Part shown: one piece after another, positions 9,855-32,742 of the stretch
How the letters are laid out: each line of letters begins with the position of its first letter
How positions within the stretch are numbered: the first letter of the stretch is position 1
IMG/VR virus record: IMGVR_UViG_3300021142_000007
Span: 32,001-96,000 of that record
Source of the DNA: a virus
DNA: 64,000 nt
Reading direction: 5' to 3' (one strand)
The notes under the pieces: model-generated
The model's database searches: none
The model's input: the letters and a program-made list of their open reading frames with translations, nothing else
What the model was told of the DNA's origin: nothing
Made by a program: the position numbers and the translations under genes

Positions 9855-10000
9855 TGTTGTGTGTTTTTTTTTGATTAATTAATGATGCGAATGTAAGTAA
9901 ATTAATTTAATTATGCAAGTCCTATCTTAATTAATTTCGTTTTAATTTACTTTTTAACATATTAGTAATTTAACATATATGTTAATTTTTTTATTTATAT

Positions 10001-10056
10001 GTATAGACGTAGTGGAGTATACCTCCCGACCCTTAGTGTCGTCCCGTCTGAATGAC
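10001..10056 (-). ncRNA. candidate structured small RNA, copy A (GTCATTCAGACGG family)
   Basis: Starts 5 nt after TATCTTTG (10061-10068); conserved ends, central hairpin CGAC/GTCG. Confidence 0.6.
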
Positions 10057-10123
10057 AATACAAAGATAAAAAAAAGGCTTGGATTTCCAAACCTTTTTTT
10101 GTTAATAGATGTTAATTTTTATC

Positions 10124-10642
10124 TTAGCCAAACATTACGGTAACTCCACATTTGATATGTTTGATATTGTCCATTTTAACGGTACGTACAATTATTGCCT
10201 CGTCTGTGCCTTGATTGGTCGGTGCTGTTGTTTTGGGTCTGAATTGCTTTATAGTGGCAATTTCGCTCTCGCTTGCTTCTATACCATCTATGTAGTATTT
10301 CAGTGTCTCGGACGTATTACAAGCAAATAGCAAATATAATTCTGTCGGGTCGCTTTTTTTGGCTACTATCGAACCGTTAAAGCTATCATTTACCTTTTGG
10401 AACCAATTTTCTTTAGCTGTGAAGTTAGCTTCTTTGCCCTCTTTAGCTAGTCTGTTGTTTACCATGTTAGCATAGTTAGCATTTAGAAGCATATTATAGC
10501 TAACTAGCTTGGTCACTTTTGACTTTGCGAAAGGATTGCCAGTTTTAAGTTGTTTTTGTTCAACTTCGGCTATCATTTGAGCGAATTTCGCTGAACCGCC
10601 ATCATTAATAAGTGTCTCGATTACTTGTGTTTTGTTGTTCAT
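10124..10642 (-). CDS. hypothetical early protein
   Basis: 172-aa ORF with own promoter. Confidence 0.75.
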   Translation of the reverse strand: MNNKTQVIETLINDGGSAKFAQMIAEVEQKQLKTGNPFAKSKVTKLVSYNMLLNANYANMVNNRLAKEGKEANFTAKENWFQKVNDSFNGSIVAKKSDPTELYLLFACNTSETLKYYIDGIEASESEIATIKQFRPKTTAPTNQGTDEAIIVRTVKMDNIKHIKCGVTVMFG

Positions 10643-10719
10643 AACAGTGTGTTTTGATTGATTAATGATACAAATATAGGTTAATTAAATTAGAATAGCA
10701 AATTTTATTTGTTAAAAAA

Positions 10720-10995
10720 TCAAAGATTTTTGATAAATTGCTTTATCTTATCATATTCTTTTTTTCCATAATAAAAGACTACCGTTTTATCTTCGTGTAG
10801 CTTGCTTTTATAGCTGTGGCTATCTTCGATAGCTTGTGCTATATTTGCGCTCGTAGTACGTACATAAACGCCTGTTTGAGTACGTACCAATATAGTGCTA
10901 TGTGTGAGGGTATCTCTGCTTATTATTGTCGGTGCTGTGGCGTAGCTTGTTATTGATACAAGTATTAAAGTTAGTGTTAATAGTGTGTTTTTCAT
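10720..10995 (-). CDS. hypothetical protein with signal peptide
   Basis: MKNTLLTLTLILVSITSYA. Confidence 0.65.
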   Translation of the reverse strand: MKNTLLTLTLILVSITSYATAPTIISRDTLTHSTILVRTQTGVYVRTTSANIAQAIEDSHSYKSKLHEDKTVVFYYGKKEYDKIKQFIKNL

Positions 10996-11104
10996 TTCGT
11001 TTGATTGATAGGGCAAAGATAGTAATTTAAAATTACCAAACAAGTCCCTTAACATTTTTAACATATTAGCTATTTAATATATATGTTAATTTTTTTATGT
11101 ATAT

Positions 11105-11157
11105 GTATAGGCGTGTCGGAGTATACCTCCCGCTTCGCAGCGTCCCGTCTGATTGAC
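11105..11157 (-). ncRNA. candidate structured small RNA, copy B
   Basis: After TATATTTG (11162-11169); CGCT-GCGA-AGCG hairpin; about 160-bp flanks similar to copy A. Confidence 0.6.
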
Positions 11158-11222
11158 AATACAAATATAAAAAAAGGATTTGGAATTACCAAATCCTTTT
11201 TGTTAATAGATGTTAAAAGACC

Positions 11223-11453
11223 TTATTTATTTGCATTGCGGTAGTGATAGTGTTTTTGTTTAATATGTGGCGTTGCATAGGGAGTTTTTGAGAAACGACC
11301 ACTAAAAAGACTTTCGTGTCCATGTACCAATTTTGCGCCATGTCCTCCATTTGAGTAACATGGAGATTCTTTGGTATGTGCTGAAGCAGATAGGGCAATG
11401 AGAGACAGAACAACTACCAATACGAAGATTTTTACCAATACTAAATTTTTCAT
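11223..11453 (-). CDS. small secreted or membrane His-rich protein
   Basis: Hydrophobic N-terminus ending ASA. Confidence 0.6.
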   Translation of the reverse strand: MKNLVLVKIFVLVVVLSLIALSASAHTKESPCYSNGGHGAKLVHGHESLFSGRFSKTPYATPHIKQKHYHYRNANK

Positions 11454-11801
11454 TTGTGTGTTTTTTTTGAGTGATTAATAGGACAAAGATAGTAATTAAT
11501 TTGATACTTGCAAGGACTAATTTGTTAATTTTTTAGGTCTATAACCTACTGAGTATACCGTACCATGATTTATACACATACGAAGATGTTTCCATATCTT
11601 CGTTTGTTTTGGACGTTTACAAGTTTGTGCCCCTACAATATTTTCTTTGCTCTTATTTGTTTCGTAGTAATAAAATTCGTATACCATGATGTGTGTTTTG
11701 ATTGATAGGACAAATATAAATAAAGTAATTTAAACCACCAAATAATATTTGTTAAAAAAAAGGACTACTTTCGTAGTCCTTTCTTAACCTATAAACACAC
11801 A

Positions 11802-12026
11802 CTATTTTACTTTGGTGCCATCCCATGTGCCGTATGCTTTAGCGTATGGATTACCACCTGAATATTTTTCAAATACCTTTATAACCGTGCCTTGTGGCAA
11901 GTCTGAATTTAGTTCATATCTACCACCACCGCCAAACATGGAGTAGTTTGTGCCGTATACCTTTTGTTTAGCAGTTAATGCTTCATTGATTGCTTTTTTA
12001 CTTTTAGCTTGTACGTAGATTTCCAT
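11802..12026 (-). CDS. hypothetical early protein
   Basis: ORF with own promoter and terminator. Confidence 0.75.
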   Translation of the reverse strand: MEIYVQAKSKKAINEALTAKQKVYGTNYSMFGGGGRYELNSDLPQGTVIKVFEKYSGGNPYAKAYGTWDGTKVK

Positions 12027-12105
12027 TGTGTGTTATTTTTTGATTGATTAATGATACAAAGATAATGCTTTTTTTGAGACTTGCAAGTAATTTTTTGTTA
12101 AAAAT

Positions 12106-12315
12106 TTACATATGGTGACTATACTTGTTAATTAATGCTTTTGCTTCAGATATGAACGAAAGTCTGTCAATAGTTGTTTCGCATAAGCTACCATGTGTTT
12201 CTTCTTCGTATTGGACGCGCTTATCCGCTAGTTTATCTAATTTGTTAAGCCTATCCAAAATAAGGCTCATTTCCTTTGCCATCTTTAGTCTTAGTTGTGG
12301 TTCTTTGTTTGTCAT
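12106..12315 (-). CDS. hypothetical early protein
   Basis: ATG at 12315 after promoter. Confidence 0.6.
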   Translation of the reverse strand: MTNKEPQLRLKMAKEMSLILDRLNKLDKLADKRVQYEEETHGSLCETTIDRLSFISEAKALINKYSHHM

Positions 12316-12366
12316 GTGTGTTTTGATTGATAGGGCAAAGATACTAATTAAATTCATATTTCCAAA

Positions 12367-12567
12367 TTAATTTGTTGCTAATTTGAAGATTATTTTTTGC
12401 ACCTTTTTATGTCCTGAATGATAGCTGTCTCCGAATAGGCTTTTACCCATAAATGAGTCCCCTTTTATATTATTGCCTGAGACGGTCTTCATTTCGTCAT
12501 TATGTAGAATTGTGTCGCCAGCTTGGATATTTGAGATGTGTGTTTCTAGTATGCTATAATTGTACAT
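12367..12567 (-). CDS. hypothetical early protein
   Basis: ATG at 12567; HISNIQAGDTILH...SLFGDSY. Confidence 0.7.
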   Translation of the reverse strand: MYNYSILETHISNIQAGDTILHNDEMKTVSGNNIKGDSFMGKSLFGDSYHSGHKKVQKIIFKLATN

Positions 12568-12695
12568 GATTGATTGATTTGATAGGGCAAAGATACTAAT
12601 TAAATTCATATTTCCAAATTAAAATGAATTTATTTTTTTTTAAGATAAATTGTTAAATACTTTGGTAGTCTCAAATAAATAGCTATCTTTGTTGG

Positions 12696-12752
12696 GTCAT
12701 TCAGACAGGAGGTCGTCACCGACTTGAGGTAGACTCCGTCACGTCCCTATAT
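12696..12752 (+). ncRNA. candidate structured small RNA, copy C
   Basis: After TTTG(12661)-N19-TATCTTTG(12684); AGGTCG-TCAC-CGACTT hairpin. Confidence 0.55.
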
Positions 12753-12845
12753 AAGGTAATTTTTAAATTTGTTAAAAAGTGTTAATTGGTTTGGTTTTTA
12801 AATTAATTAATTTATCTTTGCCCTATCAATCAAAACACATAATAT

Positions 12846-12986
12846 ATGAGCAAAGCACAAAAGAAGACGATGAAAGCGGTTTATCAAGTCCATATCGGGA
12901 TGAATGTCCTAGATGAGCATGGTATGTATAACTATGACCGAGCGAAGCGTAGAGCGAAATCCTATCATTACTGGAGGTCTAAATAA
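12846..12986 (+). CDS. small basic protein (46 aa)
   Basis: Manual ORF MSKAQKKT...; own promoter and terminator hairpin. Confidence 0.55.
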   Translation: MSKAQKKTMKAVYQVHIGMNVLDEHGMYNYDRAKRRAKSYHYWRSK

Positions 12987-13047
12987 CTTCAAAAAAAGTG
13001 GGGCTACTATTTGGTAGTCCCATTTCTTTTTCATATATTTGCATTAT

Positions 13048-13179
13048 AATCGGGTGGCGAAATTGGTAGACGCACATAGAGTCATGGTGAAGCACTTTGT
13101 AAAAAGAAAGCCCATGTTTAAGTTTAAAGCTATCTATGATTGGTTGCAAACAATGCAGGTTCGAGTCCTGCTCCGATTA
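13048..13179 (+). tRNA. atypical tRNA-Leu-like gene with a 54-nt anticodon loop
   Basis: Acceptor AATCGGG/TCCGATT+A; D arm TGGCGAAATTGGTAGACGC; T arm GCAGG-TTCGAGT-CCTGC; stem CATAG/CTATG; promoter at 13034-13041. Confidence 0.75.
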
Positions 13180-13194
13180 CTTAAATCAATCAAT

Positions 13195-13332
13195 ATGTTA
13201 CTACTAGGTAAAAACCCAGAGATAACAGCTATCTTTGATTGTCAGCTTCAGTACTATATCGTTTATAAGAATGGTCAGGTATTGGTCAGTCACAAGTATC
13301 GCTACCGAGACATCGAGAGTTATCTTAATTAA
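13195..13332 (+). CDS. small hypothetical protein
   Basis: ATG at 13195; followed by terminator hairpin and T run. Confidence 0.6.
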   Translation: MLLLGKNPEITAIFDCQLQYYIVYKNGQVLVSHKYRYRDIESYLN

Positions 13333-13402
13333 AATGAAAAGGCCCGAATTTCTTCGGGCTTTTTTGTTTGATATCTAGCCGAGCCTTCGCTGTCCGAGGT
13401 CG

Positions 13403-13422
13403 GTGTACACAATTGTGTATAC
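13403..13422. promoter_or_regulatory. palindromic motif TGTACAC-N4-GTGTAYA, copy 1 of 5
   Basis: Related copies at 21920-21939, 33425-33444, 33818-33837, 57687-57706. Confidence 0.6.
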
Positions 13423-13813
13423 TAGGGCATTGGGAAGAAATGAAGGAGCAGACCGAATACTATTATGGTGCCAGTTGCACCGATTATAAGACCTACATTG
13501 AAGCCTTCGTTTAAGCCTTGTCTGTGGGCTTTTTCTATTTGTTGTTTGTAGATTGAATTTGTTTGCATGATTATTTTTTAAAGATAAACGGATAATAGAT
13601 GAATTTATACCAATAGACCTTAATCCAAGTCTTGATATTAACGTATCTCTCTATGAGCAATTGTCTTACACCTTTCCATCCTTTGGTGTTCTGTCTTTTA
13701 TAGTCTTGAATAAATGTGTTCATCTTAATTTATTTTTTTGTGAATAACTAAAAATATCAGTCTTCCATATAAGACCCCGATTGCTAGGCATATAAACCAA
13801 TATAGTAGTTCTA

Positions 13814-14056
13814 TCATGATTTATGAGTGTAGTAATTAGTGATTTCAACGAAGTTCTCCATAGAAGAGATGAATTCTGTTTTGATACGTAGAACGTCTTT
13901 TGGCGACTCTGATATACGATTATACTGCATAATAACAGGCAGTTGTGTTTGAGCGTCAATAATGACTATGAGGTCTTGACCAGCTTCTTTAGCGTTTTTA
14001 GCCTCGCGGTACATCATGTGTATGTTCAACTTAATGAACTCAAGTATTCTTTTCAT
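13814..14056 (-). CDS. hypothetical early protein
   Basis: ORF with own promoter. Confidence 0.65.
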   Translation of the reverse strand: MKRILEFIKLNIHMMYREAKNAKEAGQDLIVIIDAQTQLPVIMQYNRISESPKDVLRIKTEFISSMENFVEITNYYTHKS

Positions 14057-14109
14057 GTTTGATTGATTTATGGTACAAATATAATACTTTTTTTGGTATC
14101 TCCAAATTC

Positions 14110-14310
14110 TTAGTCAGGTATTTTTTCAAATATTTCACCCAGTGATTTATAACCAAACATGTGGTTCAACCATAGATTACCAAAGACCCCACCATTATCA
14201 CCAACGAATCTAACTTGTGTTTCTTTGATAGATACGTCATAGACCTTATTTCGGCTGAGGATGCCAGCTTGTATTGGCAGTTCGTTTTTTGCTATGTATT
14301 TTACTTTCAT
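14110..14310 (-). CDS. hypothetical early protein
   Basis: ORF; ATG immediately after promoter. Confidence 0.6.
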   Translation of the reverse strand: MKVKYIAKNELPIQAGILSRNKVYDVSIKETQVRFVGDNGGVFGNLWLNHMFGYKSLGEIFEKIPD

Positions 14311-14535
14311 GGTACAAATATAAGCATAAAAAACGAAACCCCCAAATTTCTTTGAGAGTTTCGTTCCTTTTTTATTACTATAATTTCAATGCTTATGACA
14401 AGATGTTTTATTTCATACCTTATAGAGTTTTGGGGTTAATTAATACTTATAAATTTTAACATTAATTCTCTTGATATTCCAGTTACTTATTTACTGGGAC
14501 TGCCTTTGTTTCGTGCCATTTTTCAGAGTTGTGAG

Positions 14536-14727
14536 TTAATTACTTTGTGCGAAGCTAAACGGATATGCTTTCTTGCCTTTGAGATTGCATACGCGGATGA
14601 AGGACTTGACCCTTTCGTCAGTGCCTTTGATGTACATGGTATTCGTACCACCTGAATAGCTTGCGTTTACACCGTATGCTTGCGCTGAAGCTTGCAGTGC
14701 TTTTTTTGGGCTTGTTGTTGTTAACAT
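14536..14727 (-). CDS. hypothetical early protein
   Basis: ORF with own promoter. Confidence 0.65.
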   Translation of the reverse strand: MLTTTSPKKALQASAQAYGVNASYSGGTNTMYIKGTDERVKSFIRVCNLKGKKAYPFSFAQSN

Positions 14728-14794
14728 GATTTATTGTTTTTTGATTAATGATACAAAGATAAGACTTATTTTCGTATTTCCAAATCTTTATTTC

Positions 14795-15079
14795 TTAAAA
14801 GTTTGAATAAGTGTGTATGAAGCTTTCAACCATGATTCTTTCTTTTACCGACTCATATACGATTTCACCGCTAAATGATTCAGGTATTAGATATGAATCA
14901 AACATATTAACCATATCATCACCTATTTTTGCGGCATCATCTTCTGAATCACACATGATGATTGCATCTACACGATGCACCAAAGCTTTTTCACCTTCGG
15001 GTTTAGAGAATAGCTTCAATTCTTTTTCATCGAAATGGTGGAAGGTAATGTTTCCGAGGATTAGCAGTACTTTTTTCAT
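14795..15079 (-). CDS. hypothetical early protein
   Basis: ORF with own promoter. Confidence 0.65.
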   Translation of the reverse strand: MKKVLLILGNITFHHFDEKELKLFSKPEGEKALVHRVDAIIMCDSEDDAAKIGDDMVNMFDSYLIPESFSGEIVYESVKERIMVESFIHTYSNF

Positions 15080-15122
15080 GATTGATTATTTTGTTAGGAC
15101 AAAGATAAGAATATTATCCGAA

Positions 15123-15434
15123 TTACCAATAAAGATTGATAGGAAATTTTACCTTGCTTTTGACCCATTTGAGTATTTCGTCAGCGTAGTAGCTTGTAGT
15201 TTCTTCGCACAGGTAGTCCAGCAATGCTCTTTCAGCCTTGCCACTATTATTGTCAGGGTTGATGGTTACTTCGATACGATGAACTTCTTTGGCTTTGCTT
15301 TGGTCGCTGTTTTTATTTGTGCCAGCTGATACGTCCCATAGCTTGCTGATTATGGTTACTTTGTTTTTGGTAGTTATTGCGGTGATAACTCCATTCTTTG
15401 CGTATTCGCCAATCTTGAATGTTTTGGTTGCCAT
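15123..15434 (-). CDS. hypothetical early protein
   Basis: ORF with own promoter. Confidence 0.7.
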   Translation of the reverse strand: MATKTFKIGEYAKNGVITAITTKNKVTIISKLWDVSAGTNKNSDQSKAKEVHRIEVTINPDNNSGKAERALLDYLCEETTSYYADEILKWVKSKVKFPINLYW

Positions 15435-15470
15435 GATATGTGTTTTTGATTAATGATACAAAGATAAGAC

Positions 15471-15971
15471 TTATTTTCGTATTTCCAAGTCTTTTAGCTT
15501 ATTTTTTAGCAAATTCCAAAATAATTCATGGTCTTTCGCATTGAAGGAGAATATTTCGATTATAAAACAATTTATATTCGTATACTTCTCAAGGTTAGAA
15601 ATAACATCTAACCGATACTTATTTCTTAATTCATTTGGAGTCTTTCGCTTGTATTGACTAGCAGTCAGATACTCAAGGTTACCACTTATGTAGTTTTCTT
15701 TTAATACATCGATTATCTCTCCGAGCGTTTCCATTATTGCTTTGAAAGACTCTTTGGTATAGGTAAAGTGTAGATAACTTACGTTATCCCTTAGTAGATT
15801 TTCGCTACGCTTTGATAAGATGGTCTGTAGATTTGGATTGGCATTTATGGCATCCAATACCTCTAGCAAACCTTCATCTAGGTCCCAATCCTTATCGGTG
15901 AATTTCTTTGCCTTGTCCAATTCAGCCATATAATAGGTTTTGCTAGTGGCTGTCAGATATATCTCTTTCAT
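15471..15971 (-). CDS. hypothetical protein
   Basis: 166-aa ORF. Confidence 0.65.
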   Translation of the reverse strand: MKEIYLTATSKTYYMAELDKAKKFTDKDWDLDEGLLEVLDAINANPNLQTILSKRSENLLRDNVSYLHFTYTKESFKAIMETLGEIIDVLKENYISGNLEYLTASQYKRKTPNELRNKYRLDVISNLEKYTNINCFIIEIFSFNAKDHELFWNLLKNKLKDLEIRK

Positions 15972-15972
15972 A

Positions 15973-16299
15973 TTATAGTTGTTCAGGTAGATAAGAAAAT
16001 ATGTATCCGTTCTCTTCGATAGCTAGGTCTACTATATCCTTTGCTTTTTGTTTTGCTTTATCTATAAAGCGTTTAAGGATAGGTTCTTGTTCCTCATAAT
16101 TAAAACCTATTGCTGTTAGGGTTCTTTTAAACTCAATTTGTGTTCTCATGTAGTATGTGACCAAATCTAATATTGCTTGTTCCTTTTCTTCTATTCGACA
16201 ACAAAGAACATCGTCAAATTCTATGTCATTACCAATGGTTATGAACTTGTGGCTTGTTGAACGGATGCTTACTTTTGTGTTTGCTATTCCCAGTATCAT
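15973..16299 (-). CDS. hypothetical early protein
   Basis: ATG at 16299 after promoter. Confidence 0.65.
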   Translation of the reverse strand: MILGIANTKVSIRSTSHKFITIGNDIEFDDVLCCRIEEKEQAILDLVTYYMRTQIEFKRTLTAIGFNYEEQEPILKRFIDKAKQKAKDIVDLAIEENGYIFSYLPEQL

Positions 16300-16423
16300 T
16301 GTATTTGTTTTTGATTGATAGGACAAAGATAAGACTTATTTTCGTATTTCCAAATCCTAGCACAACTTTTTTTAAATAAAAAAGGAGGTACAAGTACCTC
16401 CCTTCTTAACAATCAATAAAACA

Positions 16424-17101
16424 CTAGCTTTCAGCTACAAGTAGCTCTATATATTCTTTTTCTGTCAGATGTCGTGGTGCTGTCAGAGGTTCATACTTTC
16501 CTTTCGGCTTTATGAGTATGCAGTCTCCCTGTCTTAGTACCTCTTTAATATGACCCTTCGGCACGTTGGTCTGTATCGTCCATGCAATAGCTTGTATTGC
16601 AGTTATCGGACAATCACTTAGACTATAAAACCACCTATCTTCATTTGTGGTATATACGCTTGCAGGGTCAACCCAAATAAAGTAGGTTCTATCTGTCGAA
16701 GTATCTTTGCACTTCACATAGTAGCAGTCTCTCATTGTCTGCCATGAATCCAAGCCTTCGTTGAAGTACGACCCATCTACTTCGTAGAGTTCGTATATAT
16801 CGTTGAACTTATGTTCGACCCTTTCGCCCTTTTCGTTCACCCAGTTAGTTGTCTTTTCGATGTTTTGGCGACTGATTAGTCTCGGCTTTACTTCATTTAC
16901 GAGACGTTCCAAGCCCAAGCATACTACGCCTACCCTTCTTTGTTCAAGGTTTGGTAGCCTTGCTATTTCTTTGAAGGTCAAAGGCTTGATACTATCCCAA
17001 GTATCTTTTAGTTCAGGAAAAGGACACTCGCTGTTTTTTAGCTTCAATAAACGACTTCCTATTTCGTGTGGAAACTTTTGGCTGTTTACAATGATATTCA
17101 T
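16424..17101 (-). CDS. DUF6745-related protein with C-terminal RQGD motif; paralog of 39440..40165
   Basis: NLEQRR, YELY, VKCKDTSTDRTYFIWV, AIQAIAWT, RQGDC...LVAES. Confidence 0.65.
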   Translation of the reverse strand: MNIIVNSQKFPHEIGSRLLKLKNSECPFPELKDTWDSIKPLTFKEIARLPNLEQRRVGVVCLGLERLVNEVKPRLISRQNIEKTTNWVNEKGERVEHKFNDIYELYEVDGSYFNEGLDSWQTMRDCYYVKCKDTSTDRTYFIWVDPASVYTTNEDRWFYSLSDCPITAIQAIAWTIQTNVPKGHIKEVLRQGDCILIKPKGKYEPLTAPRHLTEKEYIELLVAES

Positions 17102-17171
17102 TTATATGTTTTTTATGTTAGGCAAAGATAAGGAAGTATTCGGAATTTCCAAATACTTCCATGATTTTTTT

Positions 17172-17795
17172 TTAGTCGCTTTCTTTATAAACGTAGCCTT
17201 GTTTGCTAACGCTTATGGTCAACATATTGTCAGATAACTTAATATCTCCTTCGCCTGTGGTGAAGGTGAACCACCCACCTGATTCATCTTCAATCGCTTT
17301 TAGGCAGAAACCTTCGGCTGTGTCTCTTATTTTATCCACTATGCTTTTGGCTCTTGCTTCGTCTTCATCGGTTATAATGAAGTCATGCTTATATAGCACC
17401 GCTTCGTTATCATCATCACCGTTTATGTTTCGGATATGATTAGCCACAAATTCAGCTTCTTCTTTCGATAGTTCTACGGTAGTGTCTTCGGTGAAGGTTT
17501 CGCTAAATTCAGATGTAGCATCCTTGCTAAAGGACAGGTCATCTTCGTCCAATTCGATTGTAACCACACCGTTTTCGCCTATGTAGTGTCCATCTGAATT
17601 TACATAGAAGTCTACCTTGTCATAGATTACTTCATTTATGTATTCATCTATTTCAGGTACTTGTATTTCTTCTCCATCCTTATTGAGGATTGTAATGTCT
17701 GTATCGCCCATGCTATCACCACCGCAGTCAAAAGTGAAGTCTACGTGGTCTACGTTTTTTTCTTTCCAAAGACTGATTATTTCTTCTTTACGCAT
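17172..17795 (-). CDS. DUF6878-like acidic protein
   Basis: FTFDCGGDSMG motif; very acidic. Confidence 0.55.
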   Translation of the reverse strand: MRKEEIISLWKEKNVDHVDFTFDCGGDSMGDTDITILNKDGEEIQVPEIDEYINEVIYDKVDFYVNSDGHYIGENGVVTIELDEDDLSFSKDATSEFSETFTEDTTVELSKEEAEFVANHIRNINGDDDNEAVLYKHDFIITDEDEARAKSIVDKIRDTAEGFCLKAIEDESGGWFTFTTGEGDIKLSDNMLTISVSKQGYVYKESD

Positions 17796-17953
17796 TTTCT
17801 TGTTTTAATTTATGATGCAAATTTATGTAAATAAAATTAAACCACCAAATTTATTTGCTTATTTTTTAAATTATTTTCTAACTCAGGTACGAATCTTATT
17901 CTAAAATCTTGACTTTTACACAAAAATAATATATTTATTGTAAAAACAAAATT

Positions 17954-18739
17954 ATGGATACAAAAATTTGCAATAAGTGTAATCTGGATAAGCCAGTCAA
18001 TGAGTATTATAAAGACAAAACAAAAAAAGATGGTTTAGCTTCTTTTTGTATTGAATGTAAAAAACGTAGCGGTAAATTGTCATATGAAAAAAATGCTGAG
18101 AAAAGAATAGCAAAAGCTAAACAATATCGTGAGCAAAATAGAGATAAAGTAAACAAAAAAAATAAGCTCTATTATCTTAAAAATAAACAAACTTTTTCTG
18201 AAAAATCCAAAATTTATCGTGAGGCAAATTCAGATAATATAAAGAAGATGAGTAAACAATACTATGAAGAAAATAAGCATAAGGTACTGGAGCGTTATTT
18301 TAAAAATAGAGAAAACGAATTAAAAAGAATGAAAGATTGGAAAAAAGACAATCGAAAAAGACTAGCAGAGTATCAAAGAAACTATTATCAATCTCGAAAG
18401 AAAAAAGACCCATTGTTTAAATTAACTCTAAACATTAGAGGGTTAATAAGATTATCAATTAAAAATAAAGGGTTAAAGAAAAACTCTAAAACCTCTGATA
18501 TACTTGGCTGTTCGTTTGAAGAATTTAAAATCTATTTAGAATCTAAGTTTGAGTCTTGGATGAATTGGGATAACTATGGGCTTTATAACGGGGAGCCAAA
18601 CTATGGTTGGGATATTGACCATATAATACCTTTAGCTACTGCCTTAAAGGAAGAAGACTTGCTAAGTTTAAACCACTACACTAATCTTCAACCATTATGT
18701 AGTTATTTGAACAGAGACGTTAAAAAAGATAATTATTGA
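17954..18739 (+). CDS. HNH homing-endonuclease-like protein
   Basis: CxxC...CxxC N-terminus, basic repeats, WDIDHIIPL...NHYTNLQPL; opposite strand to neighbours. Confidence 0.8.
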   Translation: MDTKICNKCNLDKPVNEYYKDKTKKDGLASFCIECKKRSGKLSYEKNAEKRIAKAKQYREQNRDKVNKKNKLYYLKNKQTFSEKSKIYREANSDNIKKMSKQYYEENKHKVLERYFKNRENELKRMKDWKKDNRKRLAEYQRNYYQSRKKKDPLFKLTLNIRGLIRLSIKNKGLKKNSKTSDILGCSFEEFKIYLESKFESWMNWDNYGLYNGEPNYGWDIDHIIPLATALKEEDLLSLNHYTNLQPLCSYLNRDVKKDNY

Positions 18740-19134
18740 ACATTCTCTTTTAATTTCTCTTTAAATTCTTTTGCTGTTTCATATGCTTCAGGGTTATCTA
18801 AAGGTTTTACTCCGTTACACATCCAAGGTTGCACTTGCATATGTTTTAGATAATCCTGCGGTGTTGGTATGAAGGTTCTGAAGTCTTCAAGAATATGTAG
18901 CATTGCTATATCTACCGTATCAACGCTACGACCATCTGAATTTACTATGTTGTAGCCAAATACCTTTGGTATGATATTATATGCAAACCAAGTATTATGT
19001 GTCAGGAAACGTGAAGTATTGTTGTTCATTGCACCCTTAGGACTATCAAGTAGTTCATGAAGTTGTAGGTAGTCTTCGGGCTTACCACCCCAACGCTTAA
19101 CGCTTGACTTTGAATGTAAGTATGGATTTGCCAT
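18733..19134 (-). CDS. DUF6915-like protein
   Basis: MANPYLHSKSSVKRWGGKPEDY...H...HILEDF. Confidence 0.7.
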   Translation of the reverse strand: MANPYLHSKSSVKRWGGKPEDYLQLHELLDSPKGAMNNNTSRFLTHNTWFAYNIIPKVFGYNIVNSDGRSVDTVDIAMLHILEDFRTFIPTPQDYLKHMQVQPWMCNGVKPLDNPEAYETAKEFKEKLKENVQ

Positions 19135-19201
19135 GTTTGATTGATTGATAGGACAAAGATACAAAAAGTATTTGAATTTGCAAGAACTAATTTGTTAAAA
19201 A

Positions 19202-19462
19202 TTAATCCCAAACTTGGCTAATGCTACCCTCAAAAGGATTGTATTCTACTTGCTTTCCTAGTACATAGTTTCCTTTTTTTACGAAAAGAGCCATGTGTTC
19301 AGCTTGCGAACCATCAGGCTTTTCGTGCTTTAGTATGCTATCTTCGTTCACCTTTATAGGTGCGAAGTCAGCAGGTTTCTCGTCTACGGTCAGGCTTCCA
19401 TAAAGGGTATGTTGGTGCGAACCTTCGCCTTTAAGTAGGATTTGTCTTTTTGTTTTTGGCAT
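19202..19462 (-). CDS. small His-rich beta protein; paralog of 41487..41723
   Basis: GEGSHQH...HEK...EH...QVEYNPF...WD. Confidence 0.7.
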   Translation of the reverse strand: MPKTKRQILLKGEGSHQHTLYGSLTVDEKPADFAPIKVNEDSILKHEKPDGSQAEHMALFVKKGNYVLGKQVEYNPFEGSISQVWD

Positions 19463-19514
19463 GAGTATTTTATTTATGATGCAAATATACTAATTAATTT
19501 TGAAAAAACAAATC

Positions 19515-19697
19515 TTATTCGATTTCTTTTATTTCCATTATATCAACATCAGCACCGTATTGTTTTGATAGCACTGGCGCAATCGTTGAATTAAATTCAT
19601 TTCTTGCCATTTCTTCATCACTGGCTTTAACCGTTACATTTCCTGTGGTGAACCCTTCATCACAATGATAATTGAACCTTATATTAAACTTTTTCAT
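19515..19697 (-). CDS. hypothetical early protein
   Basis: ATG at 19697 after promoter. Confidence 0.6.
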   Translation of the reverse strand: MKKFNIRFNYHCDEGFTTGNVTVKASDEEMARNEFNSTIAPVLSKQYGADVDIMEIKEIE

Positions 19698-19814
19698 GTT
19701 GGTTTCTTTTAATGCAAATCTATGAATAAATATCCGAAAAAACAAGCATTTACCTAAATAAAAATAATTTGTTAAATGCTTGGTGAATTCAAGTCTTTTG
19801 CTTATGTTTGTTTT

Positions 19815-19869
19815 GTCATTCAGACGGGACGCTGCAAAGCGGGAGGTATACTCCACTACGTCCCTATAT
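19815..19869 (+). ncRNA. candidate structured small RNA, copy D
   Basis: After TATGTTTG (19803-19810); CGCT-GCAA-AGCG hairpin; GGAGGTATACTCC. Confidence 0.6.
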
Positions 19870-19938
19870 TAAATACTACATAAAATAAAAAAGGGGGCAA
19901 GGATGCCCCCGCGAACCCTAGGCGGTTCGGTTAATCAA

Positions 19939-20133
19939 TCAAAATTTATCAGTAATGGCTTTCGCCTTGAGGTCTGTTAGTTTTTTCTCAGCAATTGCTA
20001 TGACCATACTAGAAGCGACTTTAACGTCTATTTCATTTTCGTATGCTATTTGTGCCAGAAGGTCGGCGCATTTACCTATGTTAGATAACTTAGTTATGTT
20101 ATCCATTTCTTCTTGTGTTAATTTGTTTACCAT
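19939..20133 (-). CDS. hypothetical early protein
   Basis: ORF with own promoter. Confidence 0.6.
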   Translation of the reverse strand: MVNKLTQEEMDNITKLSNIGKCADLLAQIAYENEIDVKVASSMVIAIAEKKLTDLKAKAITDKF

Positions 20134-20207
20134 GATATGTGTGTTTTGATTAATGATACAAAGATAATAAAAGGTTTGGAAATTCCAAACCTTTTATCAT
20201 ATTTTTT

Positions 20208-20645
20208 TTATTTTGATAGGTTTGCTATCATTTTCTCCAATGCTTCAATACGTTTGTTTTGAGCGTCAAACATCTCTCTGATTGGCTTGGGTACAAGTAT
20301 ATTAAATTCTTTTACCCTTAGTGCTTCTTTTACTTTATTTCGACCCTCAAAGGTAGGTATATCTAGCTTTAGTTCGCTACCAAAGGTTTTTTTATACTCC
20401 CTTGATATACTGGCTTTGATACCTGTTGTCTTAGCTTCAAGGTATTGTCTGATTAGCCTATCCTTATCCATAGTAAGGTGTGCCTTATGCTGTGGACTTA
20501 GTTTTTCTCTCTTAGGCATGAGATTTGCGCTAGTTAAGATACTCCATACCTTGTGGTATGTAAGACCCAAAGAAGCTGAAATTTCTTTGGCTTTTTTGCC
20601 TTTGTTAGCGTATTCGATTACTTTGTCTTTGATTTCTGCTGACAT
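20208..20645 (-). CDS. helix-turn-helix DNA-binding protein
   Basis: GKKAKEISASLGLTYHKVWSIL. Confidence 0.6.
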   Translation of the reverse strand: MSAEIKDKVIEYANKGKKAKEISASLGLTYHKVWSILTSANLMPKREKLSPQHKAHLTMDKDRLIRQYLEAKTTGIKASISREYKKTFGSELKLDIPTFEGRNKVKEALRVKEFNILVPKPIREMFDAQNKRIEALEKMIANLSK

Positions 20646-20705
20646 GATTTGATTGATTTGATTAATGATACAAAGATAGTGCTTTTTTTGAGACTACCAA
20701 ACTTT

Positions 20706-21341
20706 TTATGAATTATTTTTACGTACTCTAAAGATATACTGCACCATAGGTAGAGACTTTAGCTTATTCTTATATACGACCATGTGTACGCTAGGGTCAA
20801 CGCTGACATCTTCGTTATTCAACGCTGTGCCTATGTAATAGCCCATTTCTTGCATATATTCTTCGTGTTCGTCTTCATTGTCAAATAGCTGTCTTATACC
20901 TTCATTTTCTGTTCTGCTATGTAGGGTATAGGTTACTGCAAATATAGTATCTTTTGTTAATGGATTGTTGCTTATCCATTCAAGTAATTCACCTATATTT
21001 TCGGGACGCAAACAAGTCATAAAGTCAAACCAAATAAAGTCTTCACCTGAATACTTGTGAGTGAAGATATTTTTATTTATAACACTAATTCCGCTAGGCG
21101 CATTTTTACTAGCTATTTCAGCTGTCTTTGGGTTAAATTCATACGAAATACCCGATAGCTTATATGTTATATTAAGTAGTTTTTCCATTTCTAGGTCTAT
21201 ACCACCCAGTGTAAATGTACGTAGTGTTTTGACCTTAGATTTAGGAAACATCTTTCGTATCTCTGAAAATATCATGTAACGGCAGTCTTCTTTGGCTACT
21301 GCTTTGCTATGTACGTATGTGTTATTGTCTATTGCTACCAT
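20706..21341 (-). CDS. class I SAM-methyltransferase-like fold protein
   Basis: FTLGG...SYE...INKNIF...DFIWFDF spacing; ATG at 21341. Confidence 0.45.
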   Translation of the reverse strand: MVAIDNNTYVHSKAVAKEDCRYMIFSEIRKMFPKSKVKTLRTFTLGGIDLEMEKLLNITYKLSGISYEFNPKTAEIASKNAPSGISVINKNIFTHKYSGEDFIWFDFMTCLRPENIGELLEWISNNPLTKDTIFAVTYTLHSRTENEGIRQLFDNEDEHEEYMQEMGYYIGTALNNEDVSVDPSVHMVVYKNKLKSLPMVQYIFRVRKNNS

Positions 21342-21850: not shown

Positions 21851-22003
21851 ATTAATCTGCCCCAACTTCTGGGGCTTTTTTGTCATGGCTAGTCGGTTGA
21901 CGCTGGCCAGCACCTAGCCATGTACACAAATGTGTGCATATAAAAGGGGTCACCAGTTACCCAGTGACCCCAGTCTATGCCCAGTCATTAACCAAAAAAA
22001 TAG

Positions 22004-22075
22004 TACCGCGTAGGGAATTCGAATCCCTGACTTCTCCGTGAAAGGGAGACGACTTAACCACTTGTCGAACGCGGC
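22004..22075 (-). tRNA. tRNA-Glu (anticodon TTC)
   Basis: Full cloverleaf: GCCGCGT/ACGCGGT, TCTCC-CTTTCAC-GGAGA, AGGGA-TTCGAAT-TCCCT; CCA not encoded. Confidence 0.93.
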
Positions 22076-26360: not shown

Positions 26361-26390
26361 TGCTTATTGTTTATGAGGACAAAGATAATA

Positions 26391-27530: not shown

Positions 27531-28016
27531 TTACGCTGTTTGTACTTTGTATTCCTTCACGATTTCATAGATGTTTCGGCATATACGGTCATTGTACGCG
27601 AAACGGTCTTTCATGTAGTCTTCGAGCGATATTTCAGGCAACGCATATTCTTCGAGCATTTCCGATAGCTTACAAGAATTTGTATACGATGGAAACATAC
27701 CAAAGCCTTTCAAGCCTCCATCTTCCTTGCGCTTTTCAGAATACACATCTAGCTTTACCTTGCCATCCTCGATGATTTGTCCAACACACTCGGTGTCCAC
27801 AAGCATACTCGTACCCTTTATGAGCGCAAGACTACCACGTATAGCAAAGTATTCATCAGGCTCTGCTTGCTTTACCAGTGTGCTTTCTTTGCATTTCTCC
27901 AACTGGTCTTTGATAGCCTTGTCAATGTCAGCGTTTAGCTTCTTGACATCTATTGGTATAACCATGATACCATTTACGTTTTTGCTTAGGTTTTGTCTTT
28001 CTTCTTTCGTTACCAT
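27531..28016 (-). CDS. hypothetical early protein
   Basis: ORF with own promoter. Confidence 0.65.
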   Translation of the reverse strand: MVTKEERQNLSKNVNGIMVIPIDVKKLNADIDKAIKDQLEKCKESTLVKQAEPDEYFAIRGSLALIKGTSMLVDTECVGQIIEDGKVKLDVYSEKRKEDGGLKGFGMFPSYTNSCKLSEMLEEYALPEISLEDYMKDRFAYNDRICRNIYEIVKEYKVQTA

Positions 28017-28093
28017 TTTGATTTGTTTTGATTAATTAATGATGCAAAGATAATAAGAAAAATGATACTACCAAATCCCAGCACAACTTTTTT

Positions 28094-28564
28094 TTAGGCT
28101 TCTTCTTTTTCTTTCATCGCGTCCAAAAAGTCTTCGGCATTGCCCTCAAACAATACACGCTTTTTATGCACATATTTGTTTTTCTCGTTATAGTAGCCAA
28201 ATTCATAGCAACGTAAGATTACTTCACGTGTATCGCTATTCACTTCGATTTCATACGTGTAGGCTTCACCACAGTCTTTGGCGTTCGCCTTATTTATGTA
28301 GAAACCACCAACGCCTTTTTTGAAATGAGCAATCAGTTGAGCCGCAAGACAACCTGCGCCGTTGAAAACGCGTTGTTTGCTTTCTATGTCGTCTGGTGAA
28401 AAACCATCAACTACCTTACTGCCATTCAAGAACTCCACAAGGTCAGCACCATGTCCAAGTGGATAGCCATCATATTGGCGATACATGGTGAGAAGTGTTT
28501 GTTTTTTCTTTTTACCTTCTTCGTTCCAACTTTCGATAATGTGTGTTAAACTACGTGTACCCAT
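28094..28564 (-). CDS. conserved phage protein (MGTRS...YRQYDGYP type)
   Basis: DGYPxGHG and NGAGCLAAQL motifs. Confidence 0.75.
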   Translation of the reverse strand: MGTRSLTHIIESWNEEGKKKKQTLLTMYRQYDGYPLGHGADLVEFLNGSKVVDGFSPDDIESKQRVFNGAGCLAAQLIAHFKKGVGGFYINKANAKDCGEAYTYEIEVNSDTREVILRCYEFGYYNEKNKYVHKKRVLFEGNAEDFLDAMKEKEEA

Positions 28565-28620
28565 GATTTATTTGTTTTGATTAGTGATGCAAAGATAATG
28601 CTTTTTTTCGTATTTCCAAA

Positions 28621-31085
28621 TTATTTTTCAGAAATGTTATCGATTCTATGCTTTGTTGATAAATCGGAACGCTCATGCCAATACAAGTCTTCAAACATCT
28701 TACGCGCGTGTTCTTCGTTATTGGCTTCGATATACATATCCGACTTATACGTTATAAGATACTTCTTCTTAGGCGGTTGAGTGTCGTCTATACACTTCTC
28801 CACCACAAGTACCCATGACCCACTAGGGTCTTCCTCTTGTGCGCTCGGATAGGCTTCAAGCACCTTTTGTATATGGTCTTCGCTTAGTACAGCACCTAAA
28901 AGACTGGCAACGTGTATAACGTCTTCTTTTTGTATGTTCATTGTTTATTGATTTATGACCACAAAGATAATACTATTTTTCGTATTTCCAAATTATTGTA
29001 ACATAATAATATAGTTATCATCAAAAAAAGCCAGTAATAAATTATAACGACATAACTTATCACACATTTCACATATATCATTATATTCTTCTGTTTCAAC
29101 CCATTCGGTTGAAAATTTTTGTTGCCAAATATTCCATATATCCGATTCTATCTTATTCACCAACGCTCTAGCCTCAGATACGGTTCTTGGAGTATTAACC
29201 GCTGAATAAAAACGCTTTTTAAAAGGATTGTTTTTTGTCATTGCTTATTGATTTATGACCACAAAGATATGGCTTATTTCCGAATTTCCAAATAAATATA
29301 TAAAAAAAAGAGAGACCCTAGGGTCTCCCATCAATCAAAACAAGTTACTTTATTCTTCGATGAACATCATCGGTTCATCCAAATGCTCGTTACATAGCTT
29401 ATCAGCATCCATGCCAATTTCATCATCAGCAACATAGTAATAGATACCTTCATCCACAGATGTTGTCTCGGCATCAGCCTTGTTGGTATGAACACCATTG
29501 ATAATCAAAGCATCATATAGCGAAGCCGTTGAAATGGTAATGGTTTCTTCTTCGTTACCACGCAATACCGTTAGAGTTCTTGTAGGGTATTCTATCCCCT
29601 TGTAGGTTATCTTATCCATTGTTTATTGATTTATGACTGCAAAGATAATTCTTATTTCCGTATTTCCAAATTTAATTTGAAAGATACTTCACACAATGCC
29701 AGTAGTCGGTTTCGGTATTTTGAGCGTTCATATCTATGTCATATATACTTACACTATCGTGGTCTTCACAGTAATGAACATCGAAGAACACATCACCTAG
29801 ATTTATAGTATACCAATAGTCGTCTTCGGGTATTTCAAGAACCTTAGTATGAACCACACCATTTGGTTTGAATTTCATCCTTATATCCAACAAACGCTTC
29901 TTCTTATCAAACCTAACATCGAAGAAATGTATCTTTTGCTTAAACTCAAAAGCCTTATCTACGATACGTCTAGGACTATCATCAGCACATATACGCTGGG
30001 TCTGCTTTTTACCACTCATGGTATACCCACGATGCGTTATTTCGTATATGCCCAATCCACGATTATGAAGGAAGTAACCTAAATCCTTGTCTCCACATAT
30101 CAACCACGTAACCGAAGATATACGGGTCAGTCCAGCTTTTTCAGCCAATTCTGTTAGTCTTGATTTTTTCATTGCTTATTGATTATGAATACAAAGATAA
30201 TGGTATTTTCCGTATTTCCAAATAATTCTATGAATTATTTTGCATTTCTTTTAACCTACCTTGAATTAACTCCTGTGCAAATTCATCCGTCTCCGCATCA
30301 ATATCTCGATACTCGACACTACCATCAGGATATATCTTAGCGATTACACGACCATCTTCGTTATCGTCAGATGTCGTCCAAGCATCAATATGAATTACTC
30401 CATCTTCAATGAAGTCGGCATGTATTTCTGTCCATTTACTCATATGATTATGAATTTAATTTATTTAAAAAACTTATAGCGTCAGTTTCACTATGGAAAG
30501 CATAACGGGTCATTTCTTTACCCCTATATGGCTTTAGACTTAGTCTATCTATCGTTTGACCCTTCTCGTTGGTTATATACCAATAAGTAGCGCAAGCTGG
30601 CAAACCACTAGGTAGTCTCTTGCTTTTGTAAGGTATGTATTGATTTGAATTTAGTGTATACATCTTATCTTAATTTAGTTGTGAAACAGCTTTCTTCTCC
30701 AATTCATCCAGTATGACATAAACCGCTACGCCACGCCTCTTAGCTTCCAATTCTAATTCCTCTATGGTTACATGAATAACCCCTTCATCCTTTACGCTCA
30801 TATGGCTATTTGTTTATGCAAAGTTAATAATTATTCCTAGACTTCCAAGTCTTTTAACAAATCAGTATCAAAATCTACTAATGGTAATTCAAAAACCTCA
30901 TTGGTTAAAGGCTCATGAACCCTTACCTTTTCAGCATACGTGTCACAATGGTCAGGAGCAATTCCAGCATTGTTAGCAGAACTTCTAATAGCATAGGCTA
31001 TATTTCTAGCTACTTCCATTACATCATTATCATCATCGATACTCGATTCAAAAGTAACCGTAACGCTAAATGTTAATTGTTTCAT
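28621..31085 (-). CDS. run of small hypothetical genes (28621-28941, 28993-29241, 29350-29619, 29672-30172, 30228-30443, 30448-30663, 30837-31085)
   Basis: ORF track; most have their own promoter. Confidence 0.6.
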
Positions 31086-31114
31086 GACCTTGTTTGTTTA
31101 TGCAAAGTTAATAA

Positions 31115-31888
31115 TTATTCCGATACTACCAAACTTTTATTGGTCTTTTTTTCAACCAAAGGCTTTGTTCGTATGGCAAAGCCACTTTCGAACGCTAGGC
31201 TATTGTTCGCACCGCGTCCTGTCATTTTCTTATACTTCAACCCACAAATAACTCCCTTTTTATCCAAAAATCTTAGGTCGTCATTGTCCGCGTTAATTAC
31301 TTCGTACCCCTCATACATACTAGGCAATTCATCAAATACCATAGCTACATTGTAACCCTTAGAAAGTATCTCCAATGCCTTGTCATGATTGGTTTCCGAC
31401 CTGCTAAAGGTCAAGTGATAGTTGCTAGGCAAAGGCTTATTAAACCTTGTATGATTCTTGGTGTAGTCATAAAATTGTACGCTAGGAAATACCTCAAAGA
31501 TATTCTTGCCATCAAATACCTTATGGCTCTCATAGGATATATCAGATGTGCCGTTCAAACGAAACGTTACAATTGTATCGTTATCGTTAGCATACTTCTT
31601 AATTGCTTTCTCGATTTCACCACGCAATTTATTCAGAAATTCAATACGATTGCTCAACCAGTATTCAGTCTTAGCAATACGTCCGTTTTTAACACTTAAA
31701 TACATACCGCCAAAACCACTGCCAGTTAAACAACTTTCAGCACAACCCTTAGACGCATACGCACATACATTCTTGCCAGTGCTGTTAAAGGTATAGGGAG
31801 ACATATATAGGATATATGTTTTATATCCAAGCTTCTCGCCTTTCATTGTTTTGGTATTGTTTGTCGTTAGTAGTGGTCTGTTATACAT
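31115..31888 (-). CDS. phage GP88-like (radical-SAM-related Fe-S) protein
   Basis: CAYASKGCAESCL, RLNGTSD, QFYDYTK, YHLTFSRSE, DDLRFLD. Confidence 0.75.
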   Translation of the reverse strand: MYNRPLLTTNNTKTMKGEKLGYKTYILYMSPYTFNSTGKNVCAYASKGCAESCLTGSGFGGMYLSVKNGRIAKTEYWLSNRIEFLNKLRGEIEKAIKKYANDNDTIVTFRLNGTSDISYESHKVFDGKNIFEVFPSVQFYDYTKNHTRFNKPLPSNYHLTFSRSETNHDKALEILSKGYNVAMVFDELPSMYEGYEVINADNDDLRFLDKKGVICGLKYKKMTGRGANNSLAFESGFAIRTKPLVEKKTNKSLVVSE

Positions 31889-32230
31889 GATTACGTGTTT
31901 TGATTATGAATGCAAAGATAAACCTTTTTTCCGTATTTCCAAATGTTTTAACAAAAAAAATGCCCTAGCGAATATTCACTAGAGCATTACCATTAAAACC
32001 AAGTCTCTTTAGTCTTCTACACCGACAAGAGTAGTGTCACTACCACTTATGGCTACATCAGGGGTATTAGGGTCATAGACCAATGATGCTACCATAGCTT
32101 CAATTAATTGGTCAGGATTAGGATGACCATCAGAAATACTTACCTCCAGCTCTGCTGTAATTTTTACTTTTTTTACCATTTGTTTTTATTTAGGATACAA
32201 ACATACAACCTTTTTTCCGTATTTCCAAAT

Positions 32231-32560
32231 TTATTTCTCATTTATTTTTTTAAGTAATGCGCTAGACACATTTGACTTATGAAGTAATTCATTTGCCCTA
32301 GCTTTGCTTTCGATACTGTGATACATACCAAGCACCGCATGAGTATCATCCTCGTTCTCGCATCCCCAACGCCATACAGCCATATCATTTGTTATCATAC
32401 AAGCTTGAACCTGTACGATATTTCTTCTTTCAGGGGTCTCTGTTATATAGAACGATAACGAAAATATTTCACCCGTAGAAGCAAATACTTGATTTCCTTC
32501 GGCGCGAACCCAATTAAACCCATCACGAATATTTCTTAGATTAATTAACAGCTTTTCCAT
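32231..32560 (-). CDS. hypothetical early protein
   Basis: ORF with own promoter. Confidence 0.65.
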   Translation of the reverse strand: MEKLLINLRNIRDGFNWVRAEGNQVFASTGEIFSLSFYITETPERRNIVQVQACMITNDMAVWRWGCENEDDTHAVLGMYHSIESKARANELLHKSNVSSALLKKINEK

Positions 32561-32689
32561 TTGTTTATTCTTTATTGATTAATGATACAAAGATAAACCT
32601 TTTTTCCGTATTTCCAAACCCCCAGAAAATAAATTTATTTTTAACACATAAAAGTTTGGTACTTCCAATTTAATTCCTATCTTTGTTAT

Positions 32690-32742
32690 GTCATTCAGAC
32701 GGTCAAACAGAGAGACACTGTGGGGAAGTATACTCCGTCACG
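32690..32742 (+). ncRNA. candidate structured small RNA, copy E (divergent)
   Basis: After TATCTTTG (32678-32685); GTCATTCAGACGG...ACAG/CTGT...GTATACTCCGTCACG. Confidence 0.5.

Follow-up and report, generated by a model that had tools for sequence, protein, structure and literature searches.

The window analysed here, 64,000 nucleotides (nt) of viral DNA (positions 32,001 to 96,000 of IMG/VR record IMGVR_UViG_3300021142_000007), carries five copies of a short repeat which, as judged from its sequence, represent an undescribed family of small structured RNA genes, each equipped with a promoter of the host type. The window lies in a 135,399-base viral contig with a completeness rating of 36%. 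We put the probability at roughly 50% that each copy is independently transcribed into an RNA that acts in trans and presents a conserved motif to a conserved partner. The sequence-only reading, from which the analysis started, had proposed promoter-driven, multicopy, structured RNA-like elements and had likened them to ToxI antitoxin RNAs and to repeats of the clustered regularly interspaced short palindromic repeats (CRISPR) type; the former part of this proposal was borne out, whereas both analogies failed.

A search of the window with the pattern TCAGACRG-N8-30-GTAKACTCC yielded exactly five matches as compared to none in 100 dinucleotide shuffles, and the same pattern had no further match across the entire contig. 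The covariance model R2, which was built from the 44 hits of a first model (R1, derived from 11 sequences), recovered the same five copies with E-values of 1e-16 to 7e-13 and matched nothing else in the contig up to E=10. The copies, referred to as A to E, are located at the coordinates and on the strands originally proposed, with predicted RNA starts at 10056(-), 11157(-), 12696(+), 19815(+) and 32690(+). Folded as single sequences, the five copies showed unremarkable energies (z -2.7 to +0.9).

Each copy is preceded by a Bacteroidota-type promoter. According to PMC7366714, the consensus of the Bacteroidota primary sigma factor consists of TAnnTTTG near -7 and TTTG near -33, the -7 box being seen also in Flavobacterium. 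The proposed promoter was readily confirmed, as a TAnnTTTG box ends exactly 4 nt ahead of the first G in five of five copies. Core sites of the family were also gathered without requiring a promoter (n=74), and a box was sought 30-110 nt upstream, with 2,480 random positions as control. A TAnnTTTG-like box occurred upstream of 68 of the 74 core sites but at only 21.8% of the random positions and, because the sites had been gathered without a promoter requirement, the way in which copies were found does not explain this association. The six sites without a box comprise two that carry GAnnTTTG and four chance cores that fall within coding sequence. Among true copies, the spacing between the promoter and the first hairpin, P1, is fixed at 4-5 nt in essentially every case, as would be expected for an independent small RNA gene of the bacterial type.

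The two strands of the repeat differ in their ability to fold. Predicted stability favours the promoter-side strand in 57 of 63 copies and the complement in five, one being a tie (mean difference -2.84 kcal/mol, Wilcoxon p = 1e-9; 71 G-U pairs in the sense folds), which argues for an RNA of the promoter-side strand. This result also bears on the possibility that the repeat acts at the level of DNA, whether as a hairpin site in single-stranded DNA, as an operator bound by a protein or as a small cassette that moves or recombines, next to an incidental promoter. The copies are dispersed on both strands, two of them (A and B) lie in a 165-nt duplication, and single-stranded DNA would also keep hairpin covariation. 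However, a DNA element would account neither for the fixed promoter spacing nor for G-U pairs making the promoter-side strand the better folder, and the distance from promoter to motif shifts with the length of the hairpins, which suits a fold rather than a fixed operator. A transposase-like partner was not seen either, albeit without a systematic search for one. We consider a function at the DNA level quite improbable.

Structure is conserved across the family in two helices. The sequence-only reading had recognized a single covarying hairpin; that hairpin, P2, was confirmed, and the conserved 5' block GTCAWTCAGAC turned out to form a second covarying one, P1. In an alignment of 68 distinct homologues with the two modelled helices, 87.2% of the P1 and P2 cells were paired as compared to 66.8% in 500 shuffles, and 114 cells carried double-sided changes (34.7 in shuffles). 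The covariation score of 0.389 was reached by none of the 500 shuffles (0.137), and registers slid along the alignment gave 0.018-0.091. The first two pairs of P1 (G-C and U-A) are nearly fixed, while the third occurs as CG in 33, UA in 11 and AU in 7 copies (CG 30, AU 16 and UA 11 in a cruder count), and some copies have longer P1 stems of 5-10 base pairs, such as GUUCA/UGAAC and GUUGUU/AACAAC. In P2 all six pairs change on both sides, and the stems differ freely between copies of one phage. Within the window, the P2 stems CGAC/GUCG, CGCU/AGCG (twice), AGGUCG/CGACUU and ACAG/CUGU all pair as first described, with GNRA loops in two copies (GCGA and GCAA). Such conserved secondary structure with covariation is, again, what an independent small RNA gene of the bacterial type would show.

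Other helices did not hold. A further hairpin implied by the earlier layout, in which GGAGG would pair with CUCC, is broken in relatives, as the purine run varies (GGAGG, GAAGG, GAAAG, AAGAG and others) with no compensating change. A long-range helix between the P1 junction and the tail is perfect in several copies of the uncultured phage G008 (GACGUG/CACGUC) and, as judged by eye, is not kept throughout the family.

The segment following P2 is conserved in sequence. After the purine run, the copies continue with the motif U-(A/G)-(U/G)-ACUCC, and among 66 tails the core motif reads UAGACUCC in 43, UAUACUCC in 20, UGUACUCC in two and UUGACUCC in one. The motif stays conserved although the DUF932 proteins of the compared phages, which are encoded near many copies (see below), drop to 18-21% identity. 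Most relatives continue with RNC-CUACC-UUAUAU and then a U-tract, and a U-run of at least five follows in 31 of 66 copies; the tails in the window (ACGYC, then CUAUA) are a lineage variant common to some other lineages, e.g., G008. The base two positions before the motif and base 3 of the motif vary jointly (G with U in 17, A with G in 38, other combinations in 11; n=66), with a Fisher p = 7e-8 that is uncorrected for relatedness, and this joint change points to a contact unexplained by any helix tested. Other readings considered were dismissed: a Shine-Dalgarno sequence with a mini open reading frame (ORF) would need a start codon, which by eye follows in only few copies, and by-eye inspection gave no consistent fit to an anticodon-loop mimic, a transfer RNA (tRNA)-end mimic or a site pairing with 16S ribosomal RNA. 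Beyond the motif, an inverted repeat TTAACA-N4-5-TGTTAA is located after copies A (9970-9985) and E (32745-32761) and, with one mismatch, after copy B (11074-11089), the two exact matches comparing to 0.05 expected. It follows the core by 29 nt in A and by 9 nt in E, and may serve as an operator or form a weak A+U stem.

Relatives were found only with relaxed searches. A megablast of positions 9000-21000 against cultured phages gave no match, and a strict pattern that required N3-ACG had 0 matches in viral contigs, the pattern being too tight because only this phage and one other lineage have the ACG tail. The gene for a DUF932 protein beside copy A (8973-9854, minus strand; about 294 amino acids, Pfam E = 4e-6) led to two related contigs with a syntenic copy, both with altered bases in the 5' block, the hairpin and the purine run and followed by a U-tract. 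A looser pattern returned 18 loci, which, once duplicates were merged, left six true homologues and two matches probably due to chance. Matches to R1 and R2 span the window's contig (five copies) and six other distinct uncultured phages, with 13 copies in G008, three each in G003, G006 and G009, and two each in G002 and G004, the last being a complete 362-kb genome with terminal repeats. An alignment of the DUF932 proteins yielded 30 loci, and among the 21 new ones 14 hold 41 hits (E <=0.1) and seven hold none. In total, the covariance model identified 68 distinct copies in at least 20 uncultured phage contigs, in the cultured Tenacibaculum phage Larrie (three copies) and in an uncultured 635-kb phage (one copy). 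One further copy each was detected at a modest 19.3 bits in the Cellulophaga phages phiST, phi13:1 and phi19:2, that of phiST lying at 76433-76498 (NC_020842.1, plus strand). The Larrie copies are found at 17004-17069 (minus strand), 18762-18837 and 19395-19469 (both plus strand) of ON950054.1, and the last of them is located in a 1.1-kb stretch without an annotated gene (19227-20364), which may hold other unannotated features as well.

The carrying genomes range from 77-kb siphoviruses to the 362- and 635-kb phage genomes; most carry 2-13 copies and some only one, and up to 13 occur within 26 kb. Host-encoded homologues were considered and rejected: among genomes of 185,579 species, the consensus 3' block occurred in only seven records, six from Bacteroidota metagenome bins and one labelled Gammaproteobacteria, all on contigs of 2.8-12.5 kb, and in those bins the model matched only the same contigs. 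From this distribution, we conclude that the family belongs to phages of marine and freshwater Flavobacteriia and is not a host RNA. The DUF932 gene adjoins a copy in all seven phages found by the RNA pattern, and many of the loci found through DUF932 have a copy immediately upstream and another immediately downstream, on the opposite strand. As a fixed partner gene DUF932 was nevertheless rejected, since seven of the 21 further DUF932 loci lack a copy and a tblastn search of Larrie with the window's DUF932 protein came back without a relative.

The five copies in the window share the same layout. Copy A (10000-10091, minus strand; 58.9 bits with R2) has its -33 TTTG at 10091-10088 and its -7 box, TAtcTTTG, at 10068-10061, and the RNA is predicted to start with G 10056. 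P1 (GUC/GAC) occupies 10056-10046, the junction J1 (GGGA) 10045-10042 and P2 (CGAC/GUCG) 10041-10027, followed by the purine run (10026-10022), the invariant UAUACUCC (10021-10014) and a tail without U-tract to about 10000. In copy B (11104-11192, minus strand; 60.3 bits), the -7 box TAtaTTTG at 11169-11162 precedes the start G at 11157, P1 at 11157-11147, J1 at 11146-11143, P2 (CGCU-GCGA-AGCG) at 11142-11131, the purine run at 11130-11126, UAUACUCC at 11125-11118 and a tail to about 11104. As had been noted with a length of about 160 base pairs, A and B sit inside an imperfect direct repeat, which measures about 165 nt; its flanks are almost identical, and the differences fall in the P2 hairpin and the 3 nt after CUCC. 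Copy C (12660-12751, plus strand; 48 bits) comprises the -7 box TAtcTTTG (12684-12691), start G 12696, P1 (12696-12706), J1 (12707-12709), P2 (12710-12725, AGGUCG/CGACUU), the purine run (12726-12729), UAGACUCC (12730-12737) and a tail to about 12751. For copy D (19779-19868, plus strand; 51.9 bits), the -33 region lies at about 19779 and the -7 box TAtgTTTG at 19803-19810, with the start G at 19815, P1 at 19815-19825, J1 at 19826-19829, P2 (CGCU-GCAA-AGCG) at 19830-19841, the purine run at 19842-19846, UAUACUCC at 19847-19854 and a tail to about 19868. Copy E (32655-32750, plus strand; 50.3 bits) has its -7 box TAtcTTTG at 32678-32685, start G at 32690, P1 at 32690-32700, J1 at 32701-32706, P2 (ACAG/CUGU) at 32707-32721, the purine run at 32722-32728, UAUACUCC at 32729-32736 and a tail to about 32750.

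If the copies are genes of a trans-acting RNA, host RNA polymerase with its primary sigma factor would read each of them from the Bacteroidota-type promoter (TTTG at about -33, TAnnTTTG at about -7). The transcript would open at the base of P1 with the G-C and U-A pairs and the covarying third pair, continue through a short purine junction (mostly GGG; GGGA as in the window) into P2, which is free in sequence and length, and then pass through a purine run of 4-6 nt into U-(A/G)-(U/G)-ACUCC, which would be unpaired or held in a loop. Where a U-tract follows 10-20 nt later, as in about half of the family, the RNA would come to some 70-90 nt. P1 and P2 would serve as scaffolds and the exposed motif as the working part, bound by a conserved partner, which may be a protein of the host or the phage or else a conserved RNA. 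The multiple copies, 2-13 in most carrying phages, would supply dosage, and the function of the RNA during infection would be that of a decoy, a sponge or a guide working in trans.

The arrangement of the neighbouring genes suggests a different role. Genes were called crudely, by greedy selection of ORFs that start with ATG and span 55 codons or more, and the sample is biased to one genome region, as the loci were mostly collected through DUF932. On this basis, 42 of 67 distinct copies are antisense to both neighbours, 10 are located at a strand switch and nine are co-oriented with both neighbours, while four overlapped a called ORF and two are without a neighbour. The upstream neighbour is divergent in 58 of the 67, its ATG being mostly 100-170 nt from the RNA start (133-140 nt for many G008 copies), and the copies usually end 40-130 nt short of the convergent gene. 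The usual order is a first gene, its terminator, the element facing that gene, the promoter of the element, and the promoter of an oppositely directed second gene. In the window, this back-to-back layout fits copies C, divergent from the minus-strand gene 12367-12609, E, divergent from the minus-strand gene 32231-32560, and D, a single plus-strand unit amid minus-strand genes that was assigned by eye; A and B are co-oriented with their neighbours.

Such an arrangement would be expected if the repeat were a boundary cassette working in cis, i.e., a short unit that fires backwards from beside a gene promoter against the upstream gene, its RNA product being secondary. It may stop or process read-through by polymerase collision or RNA pairing and may drive the neighbouring promoter via supercoiling. 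Beyond the antisense and divergent orientations and the clustered distance from RNA start to ATG, the occurrence of copies in repeated intergenic cassettes with a terminator hairpin fused to the -33 box is in line with this role. However, a boundary cassette needs neither two covarying hairpins nor an 8-nt motif that is invariant across very divergent phages, and nine of the 67 copies, including A and B, are co-oriented with both neighbours, as far as the crude gene calls can tell. A boundary function in cis is the chief rival to the trans-acting RNA; we regard it as possible but doubtful on its own, and the two roles are not exclusive of each other.

Several points weigh against a trans-acting RNA. 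The antisense back-to-back placement is the main fact that it leaves unexplained, and its great regularity next to gene promoters could indicate a function in cis. The structure statistics come from alignments fitted to the structure of the model, and many copies are paralogues or stem from related phages, so that the counts are not independent. For a possible third hairpin, P3, with ACUCC in its loop, pairing amounts to 69.7% in register and 34-49% in slid registers; tails shuffled among copies gave the same count, however (322 versus 321.8 pairs), and P3 was rejected as a covarying stem, its pairing potential arising from the conserved sequence alone. Only one of the five window copies is followed by a U-run, and read-through into the next gene would be conceivable for four of them. 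Finally, sites complementary to the motif are not in excess in the contig, three extra 9-mers all being located in coding sequence at about chance level.

A further possibility is that of a 5' leader, such as a riboswitch, an attenuator or an antitermination site resembling nut or put. Contrary to the earlier statement that no coding gene follows, a gene in the same orientation lies downstream of four of the five copies: the DUF932 gene 8973-9854 (minus strand) after A, a minus-strand gene ending at 10720 after B, a 46-codon ORF at 12846-12986 (plus strand) after C and the plus-strand gene 33095-33514 after E. A promoter, hairpins, a conserved linear motif and often a U-tract would also have the look of a leader followed by a terminator. 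However, only 19 of the 67 copies have a downstream neighbour in the same orientation, whereas 42 are antisense to both neighbours and are therefore not leaders of a downstream gene, i.e., they do not lie in the 5' region of a regulated transcript. Where checked, the downstream gene has a promoter of its own, with a promoter-like box between copy and gene for at least A, B and C. The neighbouring proteins are diverse and mutually unrelated (small syntenic groups and 33 singletons among 91), and no Rfam riboswitch or leader family matches. A general function as leader is thus rather hard to credit. Copy D alone runs toward a convergent gene, the minus-strand ORF 19939-20133, which carries a promoter and leader typical of this phage. 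Between them, 39 nt beyond the core of copy D, lies a strong G+C-rich hairpin (19893-19910), which was scored as the terminator of the convergent minus-strand gene and has a U-tract on the minus strand only; it likely stops the predicted copy D transcript as well.

Comparison to known RNA families did not reveal relatives. An Rfam gathering scan of the whole window returned only a tRNA, the tRNA-Glu (anticodon UUC) at 22003-22075 on the minus strand, which was the sole Rfam or ARAGORN hit. Permissive scans of 9900-13000, 32600-33150 and the loci L130 and L137 gave no hit on any copy, and no copy came to or near the gathering threshold of any family in Rfam 15. FopS (RF04319), a set of paralogous small RNAs of Bacteroides, is likewise a multicopy Bacteroidota small RNA family, but its only hit (11752-11798, 24.5 bits versus a threshold of 56) falls on a terminator and not on any copy.

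A mimic of a host immune RNA, i.e., a solitary CRISPR repeat or a type III antitoxin repeat, would likewise be phage-borne, promoter-driven, multicopy, short and hairpin-bearing. Type III antitoxin RNAs such as ToxI consist of tandem repeats, however, and the copies are never tandem: in the window they are dispersed single units at least 1 kb apart (1.1-12.8 kb, on both strands), at odds with the pseudo-ToxI analogy. The CRISPR analogy fared no better, as the core motif recurred at CRISPR-like spacing in 25 of 401 Flavobacteriales genomes with 1-2 hits each, which is about the level of the reversed control, with no array-like recurrence beyond it, a search that covers only repeats containing the core motif. 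In addition, the stems vary freely within one phage, whereas a mimic should keep the repeat sequence, and the 3' block is found in only the seven records among 185,579 species genomes. Mimicry of an immune RNA is therefore highly improbable. We attach similarly little credence to the idea that the RNA primes phage DNA replication, or forms an R-loop for it, at several origins in each genome. The order of promoter, G-rich structured RNA and very A+T-rich DNA and the several copies per genome would suit a primer, but up to 13 copies crowd within 26 kb, many end at a U-tract terminator, and the data contain no link to replication genes.

Phage elements of other kinds share single traits with the family. 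RNA anti-CRISPRs, or solitary repeat units, are small promoter-driven phage hairpin RNAs, sometimes multicopy, that have been proposed to act as decoys. The family resembles them in being a phage-borne small hairpin RNA with its own promoter, in copy number and in the proposed decoy role, but no likeness to CRISPR repeats was found and the stems are free, only the unpaired 8-nt motif being constrained in sequence. Promoter-early stem-loop (PeSL) cassettes of T4-type phages consist of a repeated intergenic stem-loop with an early-type promoter between small genes. A repeated intergenic module of stem-loop and promoter is present here as well, with terminator hairpins fused to the -33 box; unlike in PeSL, the family promoter mostly fires away from the adjacent gene, and downstream of it comes an RNA fold that is conserved, covaries and carries an invariant motif. 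The oop RNA of phage lambda, a short transcript from promoter to terminator that converges on the upstream gene, exists in a single copy and overlaps the gene that it targets, whereas the family, also a short convergent unit, usually does not overlap and in most carrying phages has 2-13 copies. The nut sites of lambda and put sites of HK022 combine promoter-proximal hairpins with a conserved linear motif, as does the family, but lie within the transcript of the genes they control, in contrast to the 42 of 67 copies that are antisense to both neighbours.

Two further features of the window adjoin the copies. A terminator-like hairpin of the upstream gene (10069-10100, minus strand) holds the -33 TTTGG of the copy A promoter in its loop and has a twin at copy B (11171-11201). 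Hairpins of this kind, with the -33 TTTGG of the next promoter in the loop, also occur at 17132-17160 and 20164-20200 (minus strand). Their U-tract enters the -7 box, forming a compact terminator-promoter module that is repeated through the phage, and the stems of the A and B hairpins differ by compensating changes. Between copy E and the gene at 33095, the stretch 32950-33060 (plus strand) is strongly structured. The fold of 32905-33094 reaches -50.3 kcal/mol (z = -4.36, 0 of 200 shuffles being as stable) and includes a 16-base-pair hairpin. A separate TAccTTTG box lies near 32893, the first stem opens with GUCAUUCUGAC, much like P1 of the family, and no Rfam match was obtained for the stretch.

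To our knowledge, few small RNAs encoded by phages have been described beyond those of enterobacterial and Pseudomonas phages. A literature search retrieved no description of this RNA nor of any small RNA of Bacteroidota phages, although supplements may hold annotations, and the accessible text of PMC10013915 and PMC12619734 mentions no such RNA. The family stands out by its strong covariation support, by up to 13 copies in one phage and by an unusual, regular antisense back-to-back placement. As it is carried in cultured phage-host pairs, i.e., Cellulophaga baltica with phiST, phi13:1 and phi19:2 and Tenacibaculum with Larrie, its function is directly testable, and the covariance model lets annotators fill stretches of these genomes that are now blank. 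One specific, though unlikely, role is that of an RNA counter-measure, a bulk RNA that titrates or misdirects a conserved factor of Flavobacteriia recognizing the exposed ACUCC, e.g., a nuclease of a defence system or a regulator that binds RNA. An arms race would then act on the hypervariable P2 hairpin and the three bases after CUCC, as no other part distinguishes the otherwise near-identical cassettes A and B.

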